Below are positions 1 to 18,753 of a DNA stretch of 32,000 bases, piece after piece; position 1 is the stretch's first letter; every line of letters begins with the position of its first letter. The position numbers and the translations under genes were made by a program. Under the pieces are notes generated by a model that saw nothing but the letters and a program-made list of their open reading frames with translations, ran no database searches and was not told where the DNA came from. Source of the stretch: Candidatus Saccharimonadota bacterium (GTDB lineage: Bacteria; Bacteroidota; Bacteroidia; Cytophagales; Amoebophilaceae); contig NZ_CP022339.1 in NCBI RefSeq assembly GCF_003351905.1, positions 30,001 to 62,000 of the forward strand. The letters are read 5' to 3'.

Positions 1-663
1 GGCATCCACTACAAAAAGCGTTGCAGAGGGTTTTAAGTTTTCTTTTAGTATGCGAATCTCTTGCATCATCACCTCATCAATAGCCAAACGACCTGCAGTA
101 TCTACAATCACAAGGTCCATGGCTTTGTTTTTAGCTTCTTGAATGGCATTTTGCGCAATCGTATAGGGATTGGTTTCTGCTGGCTCTGTATAAACACTTA
201 TATTAAGCCCTGCACCTAGTTTTTTAAGTTGTTCAGCTGCTGCAGGTCTGTAGACGTCACAAGCCACTAAGAGGGGTCTTTTATTTTTCTTTTGGTAGTA
301 ATGTGCCAGTTTGCCTGTTAAGGTGGTTTTCCCGGCTCCTTGTAGACCGGCTACTAGTATAACAGCTGGATGACCCGTAAGACGTACTTCACTATGTGTG
401 CCACCCATTAAATCGGTTAAGGCGTCTTGAACCAGTTTTGTAAAGAGCTGACCCGGTGAAACAGATGTAAGCACATTGGTGCCAATGGCTTTTTGTTTAA
501 TCGCATCTGTAACTTGCTTGGCTATCTTGTAATGTACGTCTGCCTGAACCAGACTTCTACGGATTTCTTTTATGGTAGCAGCAATGTTTATTTCTGTAAT
601 GCGACCTTGCCCTTTTAAGGACTTTATTGCTTTTTCTAGGTTTTTGCTAAGGCTCTGAAACAT
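1..663 (-). CDS. ffh: Signal recognition particle protein Ffh, N and G domains; the 3' part of the gene runs off the window start
   Basis: Absent from the ORF track because it is open at the window edge. Minus-strand translation from the ATG at 663-661 gives MFQSLSKNLEKAIKSLKGQGRITEINIAATIKEIRRSLVQA. The same frame has the P-loop ILVAGLQGAGKTTLTGKLAH (about 300-360) and the DTAGR box MDLVIVDTAGRLAIDE (about 70-120), colinear with Ffh. Confidence 0.85.
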   Translation of the reverse strand, partial: MFQSLSKNLEKAIKSLKGQGRITEINIAATIKEIRRSLVQADVHYKIAKQVTDAIKQKAIGTNVLTSVSPGQLFTKLVQDALTDLMGGTHSEVRLTGHPAVILVAGLQGAGKTTLTGKLAHYYQKKNKRPLLVACDVYRPAAAEQLKKLGAGLNISVYTEPAETNPYTIAQNAIQEAKNKAMDLVIVDTAGRLAIDEVMMQEIRILKENLKPSATLFVVDA

Positions 664-692
664 AAGTATATCTAATTTGTCTGCCTGTTGGT

Positions 693-1925
693 TTACGAAA
701 TGGTTTGGTAGTGGAGCGTACTACAATTTTGCTCTTGTAAAATCATTTCAGCACTTGCTTGAATCGCGTCTAAGTCAACTTGCCTAATATACTCAATTTT
801 CTTATTTACCAAGTTGGTGTCGCCCTGTAGGGTAGCTATTGCTAATTCTTGTGCACGATGTATCAGGCTTACTTGACCAAAGATTAGTTGTGCTTCCATC
901 TGATTTTTTACCTTTTCTAATGCAACAGGGGTGGTATGCTGAATGGTTTTTAATACTTTTATTAAAGCGTTTTCTGCTAATTCGAATGGAATGTTTTGGG
1001 GTAAACTACCACTAAGTACCAATAGACCAGGGTCGAATGACTCTGTGGTATAGCCATCTATTTTGGTGTAAAGGGCTTGTTTTTCTACCAGGTTGGCATG
1101 TAGCAAAGCGGACTTTCCTTCGCTGAGTAAGTGGCATACTACTTCTGCTGCATAGTAGCCAGGCATGCCTTTTCCTGGCATATGGTAGGCTTTATACAAA
1201 ATAGGAAAGGGGACATCCCCCTGAACTACTTTTCGTCTAGGGAATACTTGCTCAGGTTCTTGCGGTAAAGCTCTATGGTAAGCAGGGCCAGCTGGAATGG
1301 GTTCAAACCATTTTTTACACAATGCAGCTACTTGTGTGCTGGTTACCTTACCCGCAACTACTAAAATCGCATGGTTGGGTCTATAGAATTTGTAAAAAAA
1401 GGCTTTGACCTCATCCATAGTAGCATTTTCTATGTGGCTTACTGATTGACCAATGGTGGGCCATTTGTAAGGATGGGTCGTATAGGCTAGATCGGTCAAA
1501 TGGTGCCATGCATCACCATAGGGTTGGTTGAGGTAATGTTCTTTAAACTCTTCCACTACTACCTTGCGTTGTACTTCAAGTGATTTTTCGTTAAATGCAA
1601 GCCCAAGCATGCGATCGGATTCAAGCCAAAAAGCTGTTTCTAGGTTAACAGCAGGTAGGGAACAATAATAATTGGTTAAGTCTGTAGTCGTATAGGCATT
1701 GTTGTCACCGCCTACTTGTTGTAAAGGGGTATCGTAAACAGGAATATGACAGGAGCCGCCAAACATTAAATGTTCAAATAGGTGGGCAAAACCTGTTTTT
1801 AAAGGGTGTTCATCTCGGGCACCTACATCATACATTAGGTTCATTACCGCAATGTGGCTGGTTGGATCTTCGTGCACAATAACTTGTAGGCCATTAGATA
1901 AAGTAAATTTTTCAAAATGAATCAT
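693..1925 (-). CDS. M16 (pitrilysin/insulinase) family zinc peptidase
   Basis: Inverted zinc motif HxxEH (HLFEHLMFGG) lies near the N-terminus. The ATG at 1925 (MIHFEKFTL) is preferred over the TTG at 1952 used by the track. The gene sits 4 nt downstream of dapF and upstream of ffh on the same strand. Confidence 0.8.
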   Translation of the reverse strand: MIHFEKFTLSNGLQVIVHEDPTSHIAVMNLMYDVGARDEHPLKTGFAHLFEHLMFGGSCHIPVYDTPLQQVGGDNNAYTTTDLTNYYCSLPAVNLETAFWLESDRMLGLAFNEKSLEVQRKVVVEEFKEHYLNQPYGDAWHHLTDLAYTTHPYKWPTIGQSVSHIENATMDEVKAFFYKFYRPNHAILVVAGKVTSTQVAALCKKWFEPIPAGPAYHRALPQEPEQVFPRRKVVQGDVPFPILYKAYHMPGKGMPGYYAAEVVCHLLSEGKSALLHANLVEKQALYTKIDGYTTESFDPGLLVLSGSLPQNIPFELAENALIKVLKTIQHTTPVALEKVKNQMEAQLIFGQVSLIHRAQELAIATLQGDTNLVNKKIEYIRQVDLDAIQASAEMILQEQNCSTLHYQTIS

Positions 1926-3232: not shown

Positions 3233-5320
3233 TTGCTTTATAGTTTTTATATTATATTGTTTATGTTATCATTCCAAGCTTTATTTCTTACCCTTATAGT
3301 CGTCTCTTTTTTCTTATTGCGCGCTTCTTATGCACGTGAAAAGCTCATCAAGCTTAAGCCGAGTAATGCTGTAATTGGCTATACCGGTTGTTATGTGATC
3401 ATCACTACTGCGGTATTAAGCTATATAGGTAAGGGTTTGATCTATTGGTATACCCTCCAATTCGCTGCAGGTGTTTGGCTGATAGGTTATGCCATTGTTT
3501 CTAAGAAAGAAGTGCCAGCTTGGGAAGTGACGCGATTTTGGCTAATAGGTGCTCTATTTTGCCTACCCATTAATTTACTTTGGCATTGGTGGCGTCTAAC
3601 CGATTATCCATTTTTATTAAAATTATCTCTAGCGCATTGCTCTGTAATCCTATCTGCCTTTCCCTGGCCTTTAGGGATGGCTATTTTAGCAGTTATGTTG
3701 TGGGCCATTATATATGTCTTTTATTCTGTGGATCATGTGATCGAATTGACGGATGATATGATTGCTCTACTTGGGTTTAGCATATTGATTTTTACCATGA
3801 TTATTTACGTTAAAGTCCAAATAGCTGATTACCGAGCCCACAATCGTCACTTAAAGCATAAAGCTAAGTTGAAACGAGCGCAAGATTATACATTCAAGCT
3901 AAAGCAAATTAGGCGTCATCTACATCTTAATGCTACGGAGGATTATTCAGAAAGGGATATGACTTTTTTGCAGAAAGTAGTGGAAGAAGTGATGGAATCC
4001 CCTTTGTTTTTAGAAGATGAGCCCCTGTATAAGGAGAATTTGGGTACTATTGTGCATAAGTTTTCTGCATGGTCTATCTTTTTAAGACATTATACTCAAT
4101 CTAAAATACATTTACCATTGCTACCCACTGAAATAGTTCTAGGTGCATTATTCCAGGAAGTAGAAGTGGCTTTAAGCGGCTCAAGCGACGCTGCGCCAAA
4201 GCTGATCATAGCACCAAAAAATCTTGATTTGACTACTAAGGTCATATGTGATGTGCGCCAGGTTACCCATTTATTGGTAGCTGTTATTTTGCGTACTGCT
4301 CACGTAAGTCAAGGTGCATCTATACGCATTCAACTCCATACCACGCAGTTAAAATATCATAAATATGCCCCTATTAAGAAACAACGTTTCCCCGACATTA
4401 CCTTTCCAGCCATAGCTTTAGTAGTGAGCAGTGCGGAGGTACCATTGGCCACACTACCTTCAGTGCATACGCATTATGAGGATATTACAGAGGGAAGAGA
4501 ACTCATAGGCACACTTAATGAGGTTATTTCAGAAAGTGTAAATGTGCAAAAGCAGCCCATAGAAAGGATGGTGCGGGCCCATTATGGTTATCTCCAATTT
4601 CCTGCTTCTAAACAAAAGGCTATCTTATTGGTTTTGCCTTGCCAGGTAACCGCCGTTCGCGATGAGATGCTCGCCAATATAACGGTTGCAAATAGGCTTA
4701 TCAACAGAAGTGAAATAGATGCTTCCATGGTAGTATTAAGAAAATTTAATGATTATGTATGCAAAATGTGTAATATCCATATAGGTGTGCTGGATGAAAT
4801 ATTTCTATTGCTCAGGCGTTGCTATGCCTTTAAGCGTCATCTGTCGGGCGAATTGTTCTATGTTCGTGCGGTAGGTATTGCACGTTTGGTAACAGATTGG
4901 GTAGCTTATGTACCTGAACCCATCTATGCTGCTTTGTTGTATGATTTAGTAGTCTATGCCGACTTGCCGCTTTCATATATTAAGGCGAATTATAGCCTAG
5001 ATATTTTTTCTTTTGTACAATCTATTGTATCTATAGGTGACCGTCGAGACATAGAGCCATCTGGCCTCTATGTCGATAATCAGCGGAATAAGGTGGTGAA
5101 CAGAGATCAGCTTTTTGTGCTTTGTATTAAATTGGCTGAGCGGCTGTATGACTTACGACATGCTTATGGTTATGCCCATAAGTTACAGGTGTCCGATATG
5201 GCCAAAGAGACGCTTACAGTAGATATTTGCTTGGCAAAGAAATATTTGGATGGCGACATAGTAGAGCTCTTGGAAACGGCCGCCCAAGAGGCATTGCAGA
5301 TGTGCTTTGAAAAAGGATGA
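3233..5320 (+). CDS. Multi-pass membrane protein with a degenerate histidine-kinase-like ATPase region and a degenerate C-terminal RelA/SpoT-type HD domain (predicted pseudo-hydrolase)
   Basis: The N-terminal ~200 aa carry several hydrophobic segments. The middle region (about 4220-4640) has an HATPase_c-like pattern, VICDVRQVTHLLVAVILRTAHVSQGASIRIQLH ... YGYLQF ... ILLVLP, without the N-box Asn. The C-terminal ~170 aa align with the SpoT-HD protein at 22696-23334: AALLYDLVVYADL vs AALLHDVVEDTTV, IKLAERLYDLRHA vs IKLADRLHNLRTIA, MAKETLTVDICLAKKYL vs IAKDTMEFYIPWSKKNNV. The start may be the TTG at 3233 or the ATG at 3263. Confidence 0.6.
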   Translation: MLYSFYIILFMLSFQALFLTLIVVSFFLLRASYAREKLIKLKPSNAVIGYTGCYVIITTAVLSYIGKGLIYWYTLQFAAGVWLIGYAIVSKKEVPAWEVTRFWLIGALFCLPINLLWHWWRLTDYPFLLKLSLAHCSVILSAFPWPLGMAILAVMLWAIIYVFYSVDHVIELTDDMIALLGFSILIFTMIIYVKVQIADYRAHNRHLKHKAKLKRAQDYTFKLKQIRRHLHLNATEDYSERDMTFLQKVVEEVMESPLFLEDEPLYKENLGTIVHKFSAWSIFLRHYTQSKIHLPLLPTEIVLGALFQEVEVALSGSSDAAPKLIIAPKNLDLTTKVICDVRQVTHLLVAVILRTAHVSQGASIRIQLHTTQLKYHKYAPIKKQRFPDITFPAIALVVSSAEVPLATLPSVHTHYEDITEGRELIGTLNEVISESVNVQKQPIERMVRAHYGYLQFPASKQKAILLVLPCQVTAVRDEMLANITVANRLINRSEIDASMVVLRKFNDYVCKMCNIHIGVLDEIFLLLRRCYAFKRHLSGELFYVRAVGIARLVTDWVAYVPEPIYAALLYDLVVYADLPLSYIKANYSLDIFSFVQSIVSIGDRRDIEPSGLYVDNQRNKVVNRDQLFVLCIKLAERLYDLRHAYGYAHKLQVSDMAKETLTVDICLAKKYLDGDIVELLETAAQEALQMCFEKG

Positions 5321-5975: not shown

Positions 5976-6077
5976 TTTGATCTTATTATCTTGTCATACC
6001 AAGCGGTTCGGTAAATCTTTTGCATCTCACCTATTTGGCCGTAAATTACGGCTTATTCTGTTAAATATAGATACCAT

Positions 6078-7700
6078 ATGTCTACCCAAGATCTGTTGAT
6101 ACCTATTGTCTCTCAATCCAGTCATTGGCCCATTACTCTACTTCATAAACAGCATAAAGCTTTTTTGCGGGAAGTAGTGGATAAAAGCTTTAAATCTTTG
6201 TGTGCACGCCATTCTACAGATGCAGCGCTTTACCGGGTATTGGAACAGACTACTTCTAGGGAATTGGCAAGAATAGCATCAGATCCATGGGCCTGTGATC
6301 CTAAAGATGACCGACGCTTTTGGGAGGCCATGTCCGATTCTATTGCCAGTAAAGTGGCAGCCACTAAGTTATTACAACAGGTTATAGAACGTTACGTAAA
6401 GGAGATTTGTAGTTACTTTAGTGTGCGCCACTATAGGTTTATAGCTACAATGACCCACCATACCTTTATTAATCTACTCAAGCCTGCTTGTTTTGGCTCC
6501 GGAGTAGAACGTTGGACTTTTCGCTACCAAAGGTTACAAGAAAAGTTTCATTTGATGGGTCAAACAGATATGCTTCGTGCATTGGCCCAAATCGGCACGC
6601 TTGTTCTAGTTCCTACACATACCAGTAATTGGGATTCTGTGGTAGTAGGATTGGCTATGAAACAATTAGGCTTGCCTCCTTTGACCTGGGGTGCCGGCTT
6701 GAATTTGTTTAATCATAAAGGGTTTCGTTATATTTTTAATAAGCTAGGCACCTATAAGGTAGATCGTCGTAAAAAGATGATACCCTACTTACAAGTACAG
6801 AAAGATTATGCCTGCCTGATACTGGAATGGGGCTGCCATATGCTATTTTATCCAGGTGGGACCCGTAGCCGCTCAGGTGCCTTAGAGTCCGATTTGAAAT
6901 TAGGCTTCTTGGGTACCCCGTTTGATGCACAGGCAAATAACTTTCACAACCACGGGCCTGGTGCGAAGAAACTTTTTATTGTACCCATAGTACTCAACTA
7001 CCATTGTGTTTTAGAGGCCTATCAATTGATACGTGAATCAGTTCAAGTAGAAGGTTCCGGGGCTGTTCTGGCGCAGCAAGGTTGTTGTTATACGAACCTT
7101 TTATTCAGCAAAAATATATTGTTTAAAGGCTCAGAAATATTTATTAGTATAGGTAGCCCTTTAGATGTTATGGGGAATAGGGTAGACAAGGAGGGCCGTA
7201 GTTATGATGCACAAGGTCAAGTCATAGATTTATATCAACAGTTTCTTGATCTTCCTATACAAACAGTTACTAGGAAACGTTCAGATGACTATGTACGAGC
7301 CCTTAGTCATAAAATTGTAGCAGCCTATCATCGTATAAATCCCGTATTAAGCAGCCATCTAGTAGCCTTTGTAGCCTATGAGTTGGCACAAAAAAGAGCG
7401 AGTTTTTCAATGGGTTTGAGGGATATCATCATTCCCCATGCTGATTTTATGGTAGCGTTTGCGCATACCTATAAAGCGTTACAACAGCTTTATATAGCGA
7501 AAAAAATAGATTTTAGCCCGATTGTACGGGATGGCTCGTTGGATGCGATTGCCCAAGATGGATGGACTAAATTAGGGAGCTATCATGCCCAGGCTCCATT
7601 AGTGGTAATGGAAGGTGGCGATTTGCTGATTCAAGATCTTTTGACATTATATTATTACCATAATAGACTAACTGGCTATGGCTTCGAAGCAATTGAATAA
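6078..7700 (+). CDS. PlsB-like glycerol-3-phosphate / lysophospholipid acyltransferase family protein
   Basis: Acyltransferase motif I is VPTHTSNWDSVV (HX4D), motif III is FYPGGTRSRSG, and IVPIVLNYH follows. The motif order matches PlsB-type GPATs. gpsA starts 1 nt after the stop. Confidence 0.7.
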   Translation: MSTQDLLIPIVSQSSHWPITLLHKQHKAFLREVVDKSFKSLCARHSTDAALYRVLEQTTSRELARIASDPWACDPKDDRRFWEAMSDSIASKVAATKLLQQVIERYVKEICSYFSVRHYRFIATMTHHTFINLLKPACFGSGVERWTFRYQRLQEKFHLMGQTDMLRALAQIGTLVLVPTHTSNWDSVVVGLAMKQLGLPPLTWGAGLNLFNHKGFRYIFNKLGTYKVDRRKKMIPYLQVQKDYACLILEWGCHMLFYPGGTRSRSGALESDLKLGFLGTPFDAQANNFHNHGPGAKKLFIVPIVLNYHCVLEAYQLIRESVQVEGSGAVLAQQGCCYTNLLFSKNILFKGSEIFISIGSPLDVMGNRVDKEGRSYDAQGQVIDLYQQFLDLPIQTVTRKRSDDYVRALSHKIVAAYHRINPVLSSHLVAFVAYELAQKRASFSMGLRDIIIPHADFMVAFAHTYKALQQLYIAKKIDFSPIVRDGSLDAIAQDGWTKLGSYHAQAPLVVMEGGDLLIQDLLTLYYYHNRLTGYGFEAIE

Positions 7701-7701
7701 A

Positions 7702-8682
7702 ATGGTAGCGGTTTTAGGAGCTGGCAAGTTTGGCACTGCCATTGCCAATATAGTGGCACCTAATGCGCATCGTGTATTTTTATATACGCATAAATCGGAA
7801 CAGGCTTTTGCTGCGCAAAGCAGTCGCAGTGTTGCGGATCAGCTACTCGCAGCTAATGTGGTCGTTACGAATGATTGGGTAATGGTCTTGCGCACCTGTT
7901 CTGTTATTTTTCCAGTAGTACCTGCTGCTAAATTTCGTGGATTGATGCGACAGATCGCTGCAGCGCTTAGACCAGACCATATCCTGATACATGGCACCAA
8001 AGGATTGGATTTTTCTCAAGATGGTCGATTGCCTAACCATCATGGGGTTACTATGAGTGGCGTAATGCTGGAAGAGACGGTGGTAAAACAGGTTGGTTGT
8101 TTAGCTGGTCCTAATTTGTCCGCGGAGTTGGCGCAAAAGTATCCTGCTGTTACCGTCATTGCCAGTGCTAGTCAAAAGGTGTTAACGGTAGGTGCACAAC
8201 TTTTAACCAATGATTGGTTTTATGTCTACCTGGCTCCTGATTTGCTCAGTGTGGAAGTATGTAGTGTGTTAAAAAATATTTTTGCCATTGGTGCTGGTAT
8301 CATAGGAGGCATGGGTTATCCATCTAATACCTATGCTTTTTTCATAACCATGGCCATCTCAGAAATGCGTTACATCATGACCACAATGCGCATCAGCAAA
8401 AGTGCCTTATTAGGGCCAGCAGGTCTAGGAGATTTAATCGCCACTTGTGGCAGCACGGCTAGTAGAAATTATACCATTGGTTATCGGTTGGCTAAAGGTG
8501 AAACATTAGCCGATATCTTACGTACAACCAATGAGGTTGCCGAAGGGGTGCAGACGGTTAAAGCCATGCACCAACTGATGCAGTCTTATGGGAAACAGGC
8601 ACCTATAACAGCAGCCATTTATCGCATGCTTTTTGAGGAACTGCCCGTGCAGCAAGGGTTTAATGATTGGTTGGGTGGCTGA
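7702..8682 (+). CDS. gpsA: NAD(P)H-dependent glycerol-3-phosphate dehydrogenase
   Basis: Rossmann motif VAVLGAGKFGTAIA, plus GPNLSAELA and KNIFAIGAGI. The ATG at 7702 (MVAVLGAG) is preferred over the overlapping 7678 start. Confidence 0.85.
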   Translation: MVAVLGAGKFGTAIANIVAPNAHRVFLYTHKSEQAFAAQSSRSVADQLLAANVVVTNDWVMVLRTCSVIFPVVPAAKFRGLMRQIAAALRPDHILIHGTKGLDFSQDGRLPNHHGVTMSGVMLEETVVKQVGCLAGPNLSAELAQKYPAVTVIASASQKVLTVGAQLLTNDWFYVYLAPDLLSVEVCSVLKNIFAIGAGIIGGMGYPSNTYAFFITMAISEMRYIMTTMRISKSALLGPAGLGDLIATCGSTASRNYTIGYRLAKGETLADILRTTNEVAEGVQTVKAMHQLMQSYGKQAPITAAIYRMLFEELPVQQGFNDWLGG

Positions 8683-16098: not shown

Positions 16099-16140
16099 CA
16101 ATTAGGTGGTTGGCAACCAGTCAATCACCTAATTGTTTTA
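16099..16140 (+). terminator. Rho-independent-type terminator after groEL, overlapping the 3' end of the convergent gene
   Basis: Perfect 10-bp stem CAATTAGGTG (16099-16108) / CACCTAATTG (16126-16135) with a 17-nt loop, followed by TTTTA. Confidence 0.55.
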
Positions 16141-17243
16141 CCAATTGTAATAAGTTTTCCATTAAGGATTTCAATAGCCATACGCTTACGAAAGTAGGGC
16201 ATATCATGCTCCGTAAAATTGATTGGAAGATCTCGTGACACGTAGTCAGCAAATTGACATATAAAGACACCGCAATCACTTCCGTTGCTTTGTGCTGGTT
16301 CCTTCAAGTAACTACATCTCCATGCTTTTGTATCCTTTTTTGTTGCTTGCTTATTGGCCACTGCATCCGTAAAGAATTGTAGGAGTTTCTTGAGACCACC
16401 ATCGTTTGCGTTTCCTAGCGAATCATAATACCGAATAGTCTTTTTACGCAAATCAATCACTACTAAACACCAATGGTTGCCTAGATGGATAGGCACAAGC
16501 ACTATATCATAAGAAAATAGATCTATTTTTTTGATCCAATTCTTCATGGTTTGATAACTTTGGTCTTTTTGGGAAAGTTTTGTGAAAAAATAAGTATTGA
16601 ATGCATAAACTTTTGGCAGTACGACATTCTCCTGATCTTCTGAGCGTTTATGAATCATACCCATATATGCGTTGATGATATGATCATTAAGCCAACGGGA
16701 CGCTTTTAAACGGATCAGATCTTCTTGTCTAATCTCTATACCTTCTACATGGGTCAACAGTGTTCCAGGTGGGGCGCTAAAAGCTTGCTCCACTTGGTCA
16801 AGCATTTCCTTGCTTAAGGTCATATTTTGTAGAGACAGCGATGATTCGTCTAGTATACAACTATTTCCTGTTTGGTTTTCCCTATTTTCGAGCAGCGGTA
16901 TGGACTGTATAGCTACTTTTCGTGTTGGTTTACCCGTTAAATCTTTATACGCATTATTTTTATGCGTTGTTGTTGCATTACCTGCGCGATATTTTTTATT
17001 GTTTTTAGCTGCATTTGTACATGATTCAGTATATTGAAGCGTTGGTTGTATAGCTGCTTTGCTTGTGGGTGGTGTACTATCCTTGCAAGCTTTGTATCTA
17101 TTATTTTCATGAGGTCTGCCTGATCTACTTAATAGTTTATTGTTTTTATTTGAATTTGTACATGATGCAGCATGGAGCATGGTAGAGACAACAAAGATCC
17201 GCGCAAAGAGAAAATGGAACTTTATACAGTGATGGGTAATCAT
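16125..17243 (-). CDS. Ulp1/SENP-like cysteine protease (peptidase C48, clan CE) with a lipoprotein-type signal peptide
   Basis: The C-terminal domain has the ordered signature WLNDHIINAYM, VPIHLGNHWCLVVID (His), YYDSLG (Asp) and QSNGSDCGVFICQFADY (Gln and Cys). The N-terminus MITHHCIKFHFLFARIFVVSTMLHAASC looks like a signal peptide plus lipobox. Confidence 0.8.
   Translation of the reverse strand: MITHHCIKFHFLFARIFVVSTMLHAASCTNSNKNNKLLSRSGRPHENNRYKACKDSTPPTSKAAIQPTLQYTESCTNAAKNNKKYRAGNATTTHKNNAYKDLTGKPTRKVAIQSIPLLENRENQTGNSCILDESSLSLQNMTLSKEMLDQVEQAFSAPPGTLLTHVEGIEIRQEDLIRLKASRWLNDHIINAYMGMIHKRSEDQENVVLPKVYAFNTYFFTKLSQKDQSYQTMKNWIKKIDLFSYDIVLVPIHLGNHWCLVVIDLRKKTIRYYDSLGNANDGGLKKLLQFFTDAVANKQATKKDTKAWRCSYLKEPAQSNGSDCGVFICQFADYVSRDLPINFTEHDMPYFRKRMAIEILNGKLITIGKTIR
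16887..17165 (-). repeat. Tandem ~47-codon duplication in the N-terminal linker of the Ulp1-like protein
   Basis: SCTNSNKNNKLLSRSGRPHENNRYKACKDSTPPTSKAAIQPTLQYTE is followed by SCTNAAKNNKKYRAGNATTTHKNNAYKDLTGKPTRKVAIQSIPLLE. At DNA level TTTGTACATGAT recurs about 141 bp apart. Confidence 0.7.
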
Positions 17244-17250
17244 GAGACAA

Positions 17251-18534
17251 TTATTCGTTAAAAACCTTACCGATCAAAAGTCTATTTGGTTTGTGCTTTT
17301 TCATCATCAATAAAATGAAGGGTAGATTGTAGCCATTGTTCTGTTTTTTGCTACCCTTTCCTATTTGGCCTATGTTAATTTTTAATGCATAATTCCCAGG
17401 TTTTAAAGTTGGATTAGTGGTTAAAATAGCTTTCCAGTCAGAAAGCTGTATTGGCTTTTTGTTAGCTAGGGCTATACCGAATTCGCTTGTATAAGAGTGA
17501 TTATTCAATGTGACTGAAATAGATTTAATGAAATATTTGTCTGTTATCCCTGTTGCTTTTAGCATAATAGGATGCGTACTTCCTGCTTGTATGGTCATGT
17601 CTTTTAAGGTAAACCTTGGTTCAGCCGGTATAGTATAGCTTTGCGTCAAATGCTCCTTTAAAGTATCTGTTTCGTCTTGGTTTAGGCAATCGTGTTCGTT
17701 GTCGGTTGCATAATCGTTTTGCGGTATTTCATTATTGGATACATTTTTCTTGTCGTCTTTGGCTTCATCTTTGATAACATCAATAATGCATTGTACCGAT
17801 TGTTCTGTTTTTCGGCTACCTTTGCCTTTTTTGCCTATTCTAATATTGAGTAGGTAACGTCTAGCTTGTAGTGCTGGATCAGCCGTTACGGTAATGCACA
17901 AACCAGAAGATGGTATGGACGTGCCTTCAAGTTGTTTTACTTGAAATTCCTTTGTGTAGTAGTCTCTATTTTGTTTGGTTGCATTTTTTTTGGGTTTGGC
18001 TGCTTTGACTGAAATAGACTTAATAACATATCCTTCTGTCTGGCCAGTTACCTCTAGCATGGTAGATTGCTGCGTACCTGCTTTTATAGAGATATCTTTT
18101 AAGCTAAAACTAGGTGGCACATCTACTGGATGCGTTGGTTCCGCATCTGCTTTCAAGCTTTCATCCGGATGAGGGTCTGTCATTTGGTTGGCTGTGGAAG
18201 TTGTGGCCTGGTCTGCTTGATCTAGTGGATCTATTTCTGTTGAATGAGTGGTACGATAAGTGTTTTGTGCTTGATTTTTAAGTATATATTTTACCTGATT
18301 TTTAGCCGTATTGTTTTTACACGAGCTAGCATTTGCCAAAAGCAGTAGTATCAAAAAACGGCCATACCATGTGATAAGCTTATTAGGGCGTTTGCGAAAC
18401 TCGATTGTAAATGGCCATGCTGCAGTTTGCCTCTGCCCTTTCAATAGATTTAAGCATCCTGCGGTACCCGACCGCGTTGCTACTAAAAATTGCACCCCCC
18501 AAATGGGCTGCGCAAGCGATCTATTAAAGAACAT
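17251..18534 (-). CDS. Secreted or lipoprotein-like protein with two tandem ~110-aa domains of unknown family
   Basis: Internal repeat: SFSLKDISIKAGTQQSTMLEVTGQTEGYVIKSISV ... LLNIRIGKKGKGSRK versus RFTLKDMTIQAGSTHPIMLKATGITDKYFIKSISV ... ALKINIGQIGKGSKK. The lipobox-like LLLLANASSC lies about 70 aa into the ORF, so the true start is uncertain. The stop is 8 nt before the Ulp1-like gene. Confidence 0.55.
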   Translation of the reverse strand: MFFNRSLAQPIWGVQFLVATRSGTAGCLNLLKGQRQTAAWPFTIEFRKRPNKLITWYGRFLILLLLANASSCKNNTAKNQVKYILKNQAQNTYRTTHSTEIDPLDQADQATTSTANQMTDPHPDESLKADAEPTHPVDVPPSFSLKDISIKAGTQQSTMLEVTGQTEGYVIKSISVKAAKPKKNATKQNRDYYTKEFQVKQLEGTSIPSSGLCITVTADPALQARRYLLNIRIGKKGKGSRKTEQSVQCIIDVIKDEAKDDKKNVSNNEIPQNDYATDNEHDCLNQDETDTLKEHLTQSYTIPAEPRFTLKDMTIQAGSTHPIMLKATGITDKYFIKSISVTLNNHSYTSEFGIALANKKPIQLSDWKAILTTNPTLKPGNYALKINIGQIGKGSKKQNNGYNLPFILLMMKKHKPNRLLIGKVFNE

Positions 18535-18753
18535 CAACCTATCTATATTTTATAGTGCTTATAAACTGGCTTTTACTATTGAATTTTAATATAAATAAAA
18601 TAATTTGTTTTGTCAACAGGGCAACAAAAGGGGCGTTTATAATTTTTTAGCTATCTATCACGTAGTTTATAATAATTTTTGATCATAGCAACCTATCAGC
18701 ATTGCCATTTTATATAAGATTACCTATCTTGAAATTGTTTATTGTTTGATTCT

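Follow-up and report, generated by a model that had tools for sequence, protein, structure and literature searches.

Comparative analysis of the gene at positions 3233..5320 of the window, by which we mean the whole 32,000-nucleotide stretch of contig NZ_CP022339.1 analysed here, showed its predicted product to be a conserved protein that derives from a transporter-coupled small alarmone hydrolase (SAH) but is catalytically dead. The predicted protein of 695 amino acids (aa) consists of a membrane domain, a module resembling the DHp and CA domains of histidine kinases, and a C-terminal HD domain (HD_4) of the RSH type. As judged from its residues, it cannot autophosphorylate or hydrolyse (p)ppGpp by the canonical metal-dependent mechanism, because the phospho-acceptor His, the ATP boxes and the metal and catalytic residues have been lost. 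An earlier note, made from the letters of the window, had proposed a membrane-anchored RSH-family pseudo-enzyme with a degenerate kinase-like ATPase region, and this proposal is supported by the analysis described below, in which the kinase-like module was found to lack ATP-binding motifs and the gene to be under purifying selection. The protein was classed as a homologue and a pseudo-enzyme because its fold and profiles matched those of the enzymes, whereas it failed on every catalytic count.

The features of the gene are listed here, with the evidence used for each one in brackets.

3233..5320, plus strand: whole open reading frame (ORF), 695 aa, TTG start (ORF call)
3251..3817, plus strand: membrane domain, aa 7-195 (hydropathy, loop charges, helices of the AlphaFold2 (AF2) model, invariant columns)
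3818..4126, plus strand: basic juxtamembrane helix, aa 196-239, and DHp-like hairpin, aa 240-298 (AF2, Foldseek, profile alignments)
4127..4678, plus strand: CA-like alpha/beta domain of the HATPase_c fold, aa 299-482 (Foldseek, profile matches in the PDB, alignments)
4247-4303, plus strand: helix equivalent to the N box (positions of the N-box Asn residues taken by Ala350 and Arg354)
4577-4591, plus strand: terminal 'AHYGY...VLP' motif, kept (alignments)
4778..5308, plus strand: RSH-type HD (HD_4) pseudo-hydrolase domain, aa 516-692 (Pfam, BLASTP, Foldseek)
4808-5224, plus strand: Pfam HD_4 match, aa 526-664 (PF13328)
4865..4867, plus strand: Arg545, in place of the first Mn2+-ligand His of the THP motif (alignments)
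4940..4957, plus strand: Tyr570-Asp571, formerly HD, and Val574-Tyr575, formerly the catalytic ED (alignments)
5138..5152, plus strand: Glu636-Arg-Leu-Tyr639-Asp640, formerly DRLHN (alignments)

The HD domain and its lost active site

The C-terminal region matched Pfam HD_4 with an E-value of 2.5e-7 and 31 bits, above the curated cut-off of 27.2, and the same domain scored 25-33 bits in the paralogues. By BLASTP it was also aligned with a 212-aa HD protein encoded in the same window at 22696..23334 (E 5e-8, 28% identity over 153 aa), so that the homology between both proteins pointed out in the earlier note could be confirmed. When the AF2 model, which is of moderate confidence, was compared with known structures by Foldseek, the match to RelSeq 1vj7_B had an E-value of 4.6e-5, and 6yxa, 8acu, 7ohg and 7qpr were also found.

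In the alignment with the 212-aa protein, the segment SGELFYVRA is placed opposite SGDPYYTHP, with the His replaced by Arg545, while LLYDLVVYA is placed opposite LLHDVVEDT and AERLYDLR opposite ADRLHNLR. The four Mn2+-ligand positions His...His-Asp...Asp are occupied by Arg545, Tyr570, Asp571 and Glu636, and the positions of the catalytic Glu-Asp and of the His and Asn of DRLHN by Val574-Tyr575, Tyr639 and Asp640. Of the eight canonical residues for metal binding and catalysis, seven are consequently replaced, and Asp571 alone is left; each of the substitutions in THP, HD, ED and DRLHN listed in the earlier note was recovered in this alignment.

The replacement residues are themselves conserved. 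Across paralogues that are 35-45% identical overall, R545, Y570, E636, Y639 and D640 are invariant or nearly so, and IKLAERLYDLRHA, around the former DRLHN site, is nearly invariant. The residues Ser538-Gly539, Lys633, Arg637 and Asp571, which belong to the framework of the pocket, are kept and invariant. Since the former active-site positions are invariant across divergent paralogues, the pocket would have been re-used rather than left to decay.

Conservation of the gene and selection

Orthologues share the same locus in the Cardinium of Nabis limbatus and in C. hertigii, where they are divergent from dapF, and beyond dapF the upstream genes at the orthologous loci are those of an M16 peptidase, ffh, rpsO and pnp. 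The neighbours of the gene in the window are dapF, the gene of an M16 peptidase, ybeY and that of an acyltransferase. One close orthologue, of full length and with 66-93% identity, was found in each of the seven Cardinium species genomes compared (L003-L009).

The closest database protein is a Cardinium 'HD domain-containing protein' with 93% identity, and the best genome match was 'Cardinium sp. TP', also at 93%; the gene belongs to a Candidatus Cardinium genome. NCBIfam assigned no family to the 695-aa protein, of which 94-99% is spanned by the orthologues. As the orthologues and the closest database protein begin at the equivalent of Met11 (ATG, codon 11, nucleotide 3263), translation may in fact start from this ATG instead of the TTG. 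The annotated orthologue of C. hertigii L002 (gene 6001..7959, P0010, 652 aa) begins after the first transmembrane (TM) helix. With tblastn, the other C. hertigii genomes (L007, L008) were matched from query residue 1, and the short annotation of P0010 is probably a matter of start-codon call rather than a true loss of TM1.

The ratio of nonsynonymous to synonymous substitutions (dN/dS), calculated by the method of Nei and Gojobori (NG86) from three orthologues, was lowest in the HD-like domain (0.09-0.135), with 0.16-0.26 in the TM domain and 0.27-0.34 in the CA-like domain, and amounted to 0.18-0.21 over the entire gene. All these values are approximate because dS, at 0.7-1.1, is near saturation. 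On the combined evidence of an intact ORF, synteny, dN/dS and invariant replacements, the comparison indicates that the gene is functional and not decaying. A non-catalytic role is a reasonable reading of the protein, because it is a pseudo-enzyme under purifying selection.

A functionless relic or pseudogene, decaying in the reduced genome of a symbiont, was also considered. Insertion sequence (IS) elements and fragments of this family abound in the genome, the window itself containing one such remnant, and 81 SSS/HD fragments have been reported in the Cardinium of Tyrophagus (cTPut; PMC12039267). Nevertheless, the 695-codon ORF is intact with dN/dS of about 0.2, syntenic orthologues exist in two further Cardinium lineages, and a full-length orthologue is present in seven genomes. 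This explanation, contradicted by synteny and by dN/dS, was rejected, and we regard it as extremely improbable.

A family of symporter-fused HD proteins

A word-indexed search retrieved 34 relatives, all of them from Cardinium, which fell into three size classes: orthologues of ~650-700 aa, paralogues of 660-730 aa with 43-47% identity, and paralogues of 1160-1200 aa with an additional N-terminal Na+/solute symporter domain (PF00474, SSF). In Pfam searches this domain was absent from the window protein and present in P0029, P0030 and distant members (E 1e-12 to 1e-19). The window protein was aligned to residues ~500-1173 of the long forms, and therefore represents a symporter-less version of them; it is collinear from end to end with 28 Cardinium members through a core of six TM helices (6-TM), the DHp/CA-like region and HD_4.

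An exhaustive profile search of 1.84 billion representatives yielded 313 of them at E<=1e-3, with 131 at E<=1e-10 covering all three parts. Many of the matches were proteins of 1110-1250 aa with the full architecture, in which an SSF domain, the 6-TM core, the pseudo-kinase and HD_4 follow one another, and the named ones came from Amoebophilaceae, Candidatus Amoebophilus sp., Bacteroidota metagenome-assembled genomes and Cardinium. The remark in the earlier note, whose author was not aware of a described architecture of this kind, needs correction, as the window protein is a symporter-less member of a sizeable Amoebophilaceae family that is annotated in databases and touched upon in genome papers (PMC6232779, PMC8831229, PMC12039267).

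The HD domain could be scored in 143 sequences. All eight canonical residues were kept in 65 of them (two being long Rel proteins used as outgroups), whereas 56 carried a dead signature, R-Y-[D/G/E]-x-[Y/H]-E-Y-D, with at most one canonical residue, and ~22 were intermediate. The signature of the window protein is RYDVYEYD, and Arg545 is invariant in 56/56 signature sequences. Most of the distant members of the family retain an intact hydrolase site. When a neighbour-joining tree was calculated with the two long Rel proteins as its root, and without bootstrap or other support values, the 56 signature sequences were grouped in a single clade of 57 tips. Read from these comparisons, the dead 'R-Y-E-Y-D' pocket arose once, and the other degenerate members represent independent losses. 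The reconstructed ancestor is a protein with an SSF symporter, the 6-TM core, a pseudo-kinase and an active HD alarmone hydrolase, the latter taken as active because 65/143 HD domains keep all eight canonical residues; ancestral proteins of full length probably coupled solute transport to the hydrolysis of (p)ppGpp.

DNA patterns specific for the clade were searched in 185,579 species genomes and matched Cardinium only, at 60 loci in seven genomes (5-14 per genome of ~1 Mb); the scan is limited by its patterns, and relatives with slightly different motifs, such as P0053 and P0056, escape it. In CP101107, two mid-size paralogues with dead HD domains, P0018 and P0023 (NMK33_04935 and NMK33_04955), are encoded a few genes apart. 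At a C. hertigii locus (L030), a long paralogue directly precedes a 674-aa ORF that is possibly a short paralogue. The expansion of the family seems to have been fed by local tandem duplication.

The same clade bears on the possibility of a cryptic enzyme, in which Arg545, Tyr570, Glu636, Tyr639 and Asp640 would form a new and possibly metal-independent site for another phospho-ester or nucleotide. The replacements are non-random and invariant in a clade that arose once and then radiated, and purifying selection on the HD-like domain is strong. However, the general-base Glu-Asp pair has become Val-Tyr, Arg-Tyr or Arg-His, varying among the paralogues, and we know of no HD-superfamily enzyme that works without its His/Asp metal site. 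We therefore consider a cryptic enzyme distinctly improbable.

The kinase-like middle region

In a Foldseek search with the whole model, RelSeq ranked first and was followed by dozens of DHp-CA kinase structures. When aa 236-482 only were modelled separately with AF2 (predicted template modelling score 0.63), all of the top 50 matches were DHp-CA structures of histidine kinases, with CckA (5idj, E 3.7e-7) as the best one and 105 matches at E<=1e-3; the alignments covered ~240 columns, corresponding to the DHp hairpin plus the CA domain. RetS and the kinase-related domain of plant phytochromes ranked among the top fold matches.

Profiles built from Cardinium sequences only gave sub-significant kinase matches in the PDB (ThkA, E 0.11 and 0.089), and significance was reached because distant family members were added to the profile, which then matched ThkA (3a0r) at E 9.9e-10, ZraS at 7.6e-6 and AdeS at 4e-5. 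The family profile was aligned with DHp helix 2 of these three kinases, and in a second stretch of ZraS the family motif 'AHYGY...VLP' was aligned with the kinase motif 'HGG.I.V...LP'. The Pfam models HisKA and HATPase_c did not match the window protein even at E<=10, nor did they match three paralogues and eight distant full-length members at E<=1.

None of the residues required for autophosphorylation and ATP binding was recovered in the alignments. The first Asn of the N box is replaced by Ala350 and the second one, which binds Mg2+, by Arg354 (Tyr in the family consensus); the G1 (DxGxG) and G2 (GxGLG) boxes are absent from the CA-like domain; and no phospho-acceptor His is conserved in DHp helix 1 across the Cardinium clades and paralogues. 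The description of this region in the earlier note, as an HATPase_c fold without the N-box Asn, was thus correct, and it applies to the whole family. According to the alignments, the kinase-like domain is degenerate family-wide, and the HD domain is dead in particular lineages only.

An H-box-like motif, 'L(S/Q/K)H(E/R)(E/Q)(R/K)(F/L)', was observed ~15-20 aa ahead of the middle domain in P0098, P0095 and P0081, which are distant members with an active HD domain; its short form 'HE.RF' was sought throughout the family and found in few distant members only. As a possible remnant of an H box, this motif is a hint that the ancestor was a genuine kinase of the HisKA type.

The membrane domain

Seven TM helices were predicted from hydropathy and from the helices of the AF2 model, in agreement with the multiple TM helices that had been noticed at the N-terminus. 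According to the positive-inside rule, the Lys/Arg-rich loops predict an N-out/C-in topology, in which everything beyond residue ~196 would be cytoplasmic. TM1 (aa 7-27) is an extra N-terminal helix of the window protein that precedes the conserved 6-TM core (aa ~45-195) common to the long forms. This core carries the invariant motif FCLPIN.LWHWW, and its counterpart in the ~1170-aa paralogues is located directly behind their SSF domain. The mean predicted local distance difference test score (pLDDT) of the full-length AF2 model was 69.5.

These data could also be explained if the membrane domain were the functional part of the protein, for instance by regulating SSF transporters or serving them as an accessory subunit, with the cytoplasmic domains as a ligand-free scaffold for structure or dimerisation. 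The invariance of FCLPIN.LWHWW, the dN/dS of 0.16-0.26 in the TM domain, the constant position of the 6-TM core after SSF in the long paralogues and the family-wide degeneration of the kinase-like domain are all consistent with this idea. On the other hand, the HD-like domain is under tighter constraint than the TM domain, and its former active-site positions are invariant to a degree beyond the needs of a mere scaffold, so such a role appears unlikely.

Proposed role of the protein

As a whole, the data are best explained, by analogy and still tentatively, by a dead, non-catalytic protein that acts as a dimerising regulator or ligand sensor, a reading to which we give slightly less than an even chance. 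The protein would dimerise through its DHp-like hairpin, and probably also through the 6-TM core, in the fashion of kinases. Its partner would be a second copy of itself or one of the symporter-bearing paralogues of the same genome; a heterodimer with the latter would be the most economical solution, because several symporter-bearing paralogues with the same 6-TM/DHp module are encoded per Cardinium genome. Its helices would relay a signal from the membrane or from the state of a transporter, and the output would be non-enzymatic, with the remodelled HD pocket binding a ligand or a partner, most plausibly a guanine nucleotide or an alarmone. In this way, the window protein could tune nutrient import or a downstream partner.

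Several observations weigh against the role as a dimerising regulator or sensor. Binding, dimerisation and the partner are all proposed by analogy, and no response regulator was found adjacent to the gene, either in the window or at the orthologous loci, nor is the gene of any other partner adjacent to it. With mean pLDDT values of 68-70, the AF2 models are of moderate confidence, and the DHp-like hairpin was modelled with low confidence; the dS values near saturation mentioned above affect the estimates of selection. The substrate-contacting Arg of the RxxSG motif is His536 in this protein, with an Arg one position off, and retained binding of (p)ppGpp is therefore uncertain. It is also conceivable that the conserved Arg/Tyr/Glu/Asp set makes up an active site of another kind. 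Finally, the evidence for an alarmone synthetase in Cardinium consists of 28 residues from another species, C. hertigii.

A more specific version of the proposal would have the family members as 'transceptors' that tie solute uptake to (p)ppGpp hydrolysis, with the pocket of the Cardinium branch converted once into a non-cleaving alarmone receptor and the window protein as a symporter-less regulatory subunit that forms heterodimers with the transporter paralogues. This version is improbable in our judgement; if true, nutrient import would be gated by alarmone receptors of the membrane that form a class of their own, new to science.

Possible alarmone synthesis in Cardinium

The evidence for a synthetase comes from the L030 locus of C. 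hertigii cEhis1 (contig 2, ~23,043-23,130), where the tail of an ORF at nucleotides 2-88 ends in EIQIRTERMDYIAEYGEAAHWKYKYTSL followed by its stop codon. This tail matched the synthetase domain RelA_SpoT of Pfam (PF04607) over its final 26 positions, with an E-value of 4.1e-9. A long paralogue of the family and, adjacent to it, a possible short one follow 1.4 kb downstream of the tail, the order after the tail being a 355-aa ORF (140..1207), the 1178-aa family paralogue and the 674-aa ORF. As the ORF stops right after the synthetase domain, a protein similar to small alarmone synthetases or a C-terminally truncated Rel is suggested, and alarmone synthesis may accordingly exist in Cardinium. 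A search seeded with the long Rel P0172 returned clostridial Rel proteins only, and an approximate query, in which a consensus was joined to the 28 aa of the Cardinium tail, yielded nothing but short fragments that are unrelated. No synthetase was seen around P0030 or P0033, where synteny with L030 is lacking.

This gene tail is also relevant to a simpler possibility, that of a stand-alone membrane alarmone receptor, in line with the alarmone sensor considered in the earlier note, in which the dead pocket would bind (p)ppGpp without cleaving it and a homodimer would report the alarmone level to a downstream partner independently of the symporter paralogues. In its favour, the framework residues Ser538-Gly539, Lys633, Arg637 and Asp571 are invariant, no other part of the gene is as constrained as the HD-like domain, the tail of a synthetase-domain gene is present in C. 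hertigii, and Amoebophilus is reported to have a Rel and many SAH copies (PMC3153485). However, the metal ligands that also position the 3'-diphosphate have been lost (only Asp571 of the eight canonical residues is left), the canonical Arg of RxxSG has become His, the synthetase tail comes from C. hertigii and not from the genome of the window, and neither an output domain nor a partner was identified. We give a receptor of this kind a low probability.

A second HD gene and other features of the window

The remaining features of the window are listed below.

22621..23334, plus strand: truncated remnant of a paralogue with an active HD domain, annotated as the 212-aa ORF 22696..23334 (BLASTP, tblastn)
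21347..22585, plus strand: transposase of the IS256/Mutator family at the truncation point of the remnant (Pfam Transposase_mut, E 1.2e-98)
20055..21314, plus strand: Mg-chelatase-like ATPase of the ComM/YifB type, 419 aa (Mg_chelatase match ending at residue 395)
16125..17243, minus strand: 372-aa protein with a protease domain of the eukaryotic Ulp1/SENP type (Peptidase_C48, E 1.9e-39)
27006..27584: resolvase
27641..28447: fragment of a Tn3 DDE transposase

The 212-aa protein had been taken in the earlier note for a bona fide SpoT-type HD protein. All of its eight catalytic residues are indeed intact, but the gene is what is left of the 3' end of a family paralogue with an active HD domain, cut beside a transposase, and not an independent SpoT gene. 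BLASTP against aa 486-699 of P0160, a 710-aa Cardinium member of the family whose cluster also includes a 1163-aa form, gave 61% identity at E 2e-93. With P0160 aa 461-699 and P0187 aa 914-1152 as tblastn queries, the match in the window extended over 22621-23325. The homology starts 36 nucleotides past the transposase stop codon and 75 nucleotides upstream of the annotated ATG, within the end of the CA-like domain, and the N-terminal part of the remnant was not found by tblastn elsewhere in the window. The ComM/YifB-type ORF, in which no C-terminal domain was detected after residue 395, ends just before the transposase and may likewise have been truncated by the IS element.

The protein with the Ulp1/SENP domain is, from its sequence, a candidate effector of host interaction; the adjacent 428-aa ORF (17251..18537) had no Pfam match. 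From ~23000 to ~32000, the G+C content of the window falls from ~40% to ~27-37%, and this region, in which the resolvase and the Tn3 fragment are located, looks like a mobile or plasmid-derived island.

Comparison with known systems

The HD domain of the window protein is homologous to that of Mesh1, the SAHs, the rickSpo group of Atkinson et al. (2011) and RelSeq (1vj7) and has the same all-helical fold. Distant members of its family keep the H...HD...ED...DRLHN residues of SAH and RSH enzymes, whereas seven of the eight are replaced in the window protein, which is tethered to a membrane domain and a kinase-like module instead of being a free protein of ~200 aa. In Amoebophilus, an expansion of rickSpo-type hydrolases was described with no mention of a fusion to membrane or symporter domains (PMC3153485). 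Homologues named 'spoT ... /sodium glucose cotransporter' have been counted in Amoebophilus (18) and in three Cardinium strains (7, 3 and 2; PMC6232779), 19 'putative sodium/solute symporters' of unknown function and stage-dependent expression were reported for A. asiaticus (PMC8831229), and numerous SSS/HD-domain fragments, 81 in all, for cTPut (PMC12039267). The pseudo-kinase module, the membrane-tethered design of the hydrolase and the dead HD pocket were not described in the literature searched, including the supplement of PMC5698495.

The long paralogues resemble CbrA/CrbS and the 'SLC5sbd+HK' or PutP-HK proteins of rickettsiae and Orientia in having an N-terminal symporter followed by DHp-CA. 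Genes for SLC5 symporter-kinases are said to have spread laterally among Rickettsiales, Amoebophilus and Cardinium (PMC5615194). Unlike these proteins, the window protein lacks the SSF domain, contains an extra 6-TM block, is devoid of a receiver domain and of the H, N, G1 and G2 boxes, and ends in an HD domain as its output; neither a STAC nor a PAS domain was detected with Pfam.

Chimeras described as 'HATPase-SpoT hydrolase' are carried as cargo by the Rickettsiales amplified genetic element (RAGE) of Orientia tsutsugamushi, in proliferating copies with many truncated forms (PMC10732058). As in these chimeras, an HD domain of the SpoT hydrolase type is joined here to a kinase-type ATPase part in an obligate intracellular bacterium. 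Compared by description, the Orientia proteins are cargo of a mobile element and often fragments, whereas the window gene encodes a membrane domain as well and is a chromosomal orthologue, stable and in conserved synteny.

A functional parallel for a dead HD domain is the N-terminal domain of E. coli RelA, which is likewise a conserved RSH HD domain without hydrolase residues and serves as a regulatory switch (PMC8012599). The replacement residues differ between RelA and the window protein. Moreover, the pseudo-HD of RelA regulates an adjacent synthetase on the ribosome, whereas the window protein has no synthetase domain, and the neighbours of its HD domain are a pseudo-kinase and a membrane domain.

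For the kinase-like module, a parallel is offered by RetS and the kinase-related domain of plant phytochromes, which have the DHp-CA fold and act by protein-protein contacts and not by canonical autophosphorylation. Only the general kinase fold is detectable in common with them, and the sensory and output parts differ.

Hydrolases of (p)ppGpp are normally soluble, and little is known about how SAHs are regulated. In the family described here, a transmission module derived from a kinase connects the hydrolase permanently with a membrane domain and usually also with a Na+/solute symporter, so that in host-dependent symbionts the import of nutrients could plausibly be linked directly to relief of the stringent response. 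Neither alarmone metabolism nor simple transport in Cardinium should be deduced from annotations such as 'HD domain-containing protein', 'bifunctional (p)ppGpp synthase/hydrolase' or 'sodium:solute symporter'. In the Cardinium branch, both enzymatic modules have become pseudo-enzymes while the former active-site positions are conserved, which makes it a natural test case for the re-use of dead enzymes as sensors or scaffolds. In comparison with the known systems, the window protein is a membrane-anchored member, degenerate in both modules, of an uncharacterised family of transporter-kinase-hydrolase proteins, the component domains of which are familiar.

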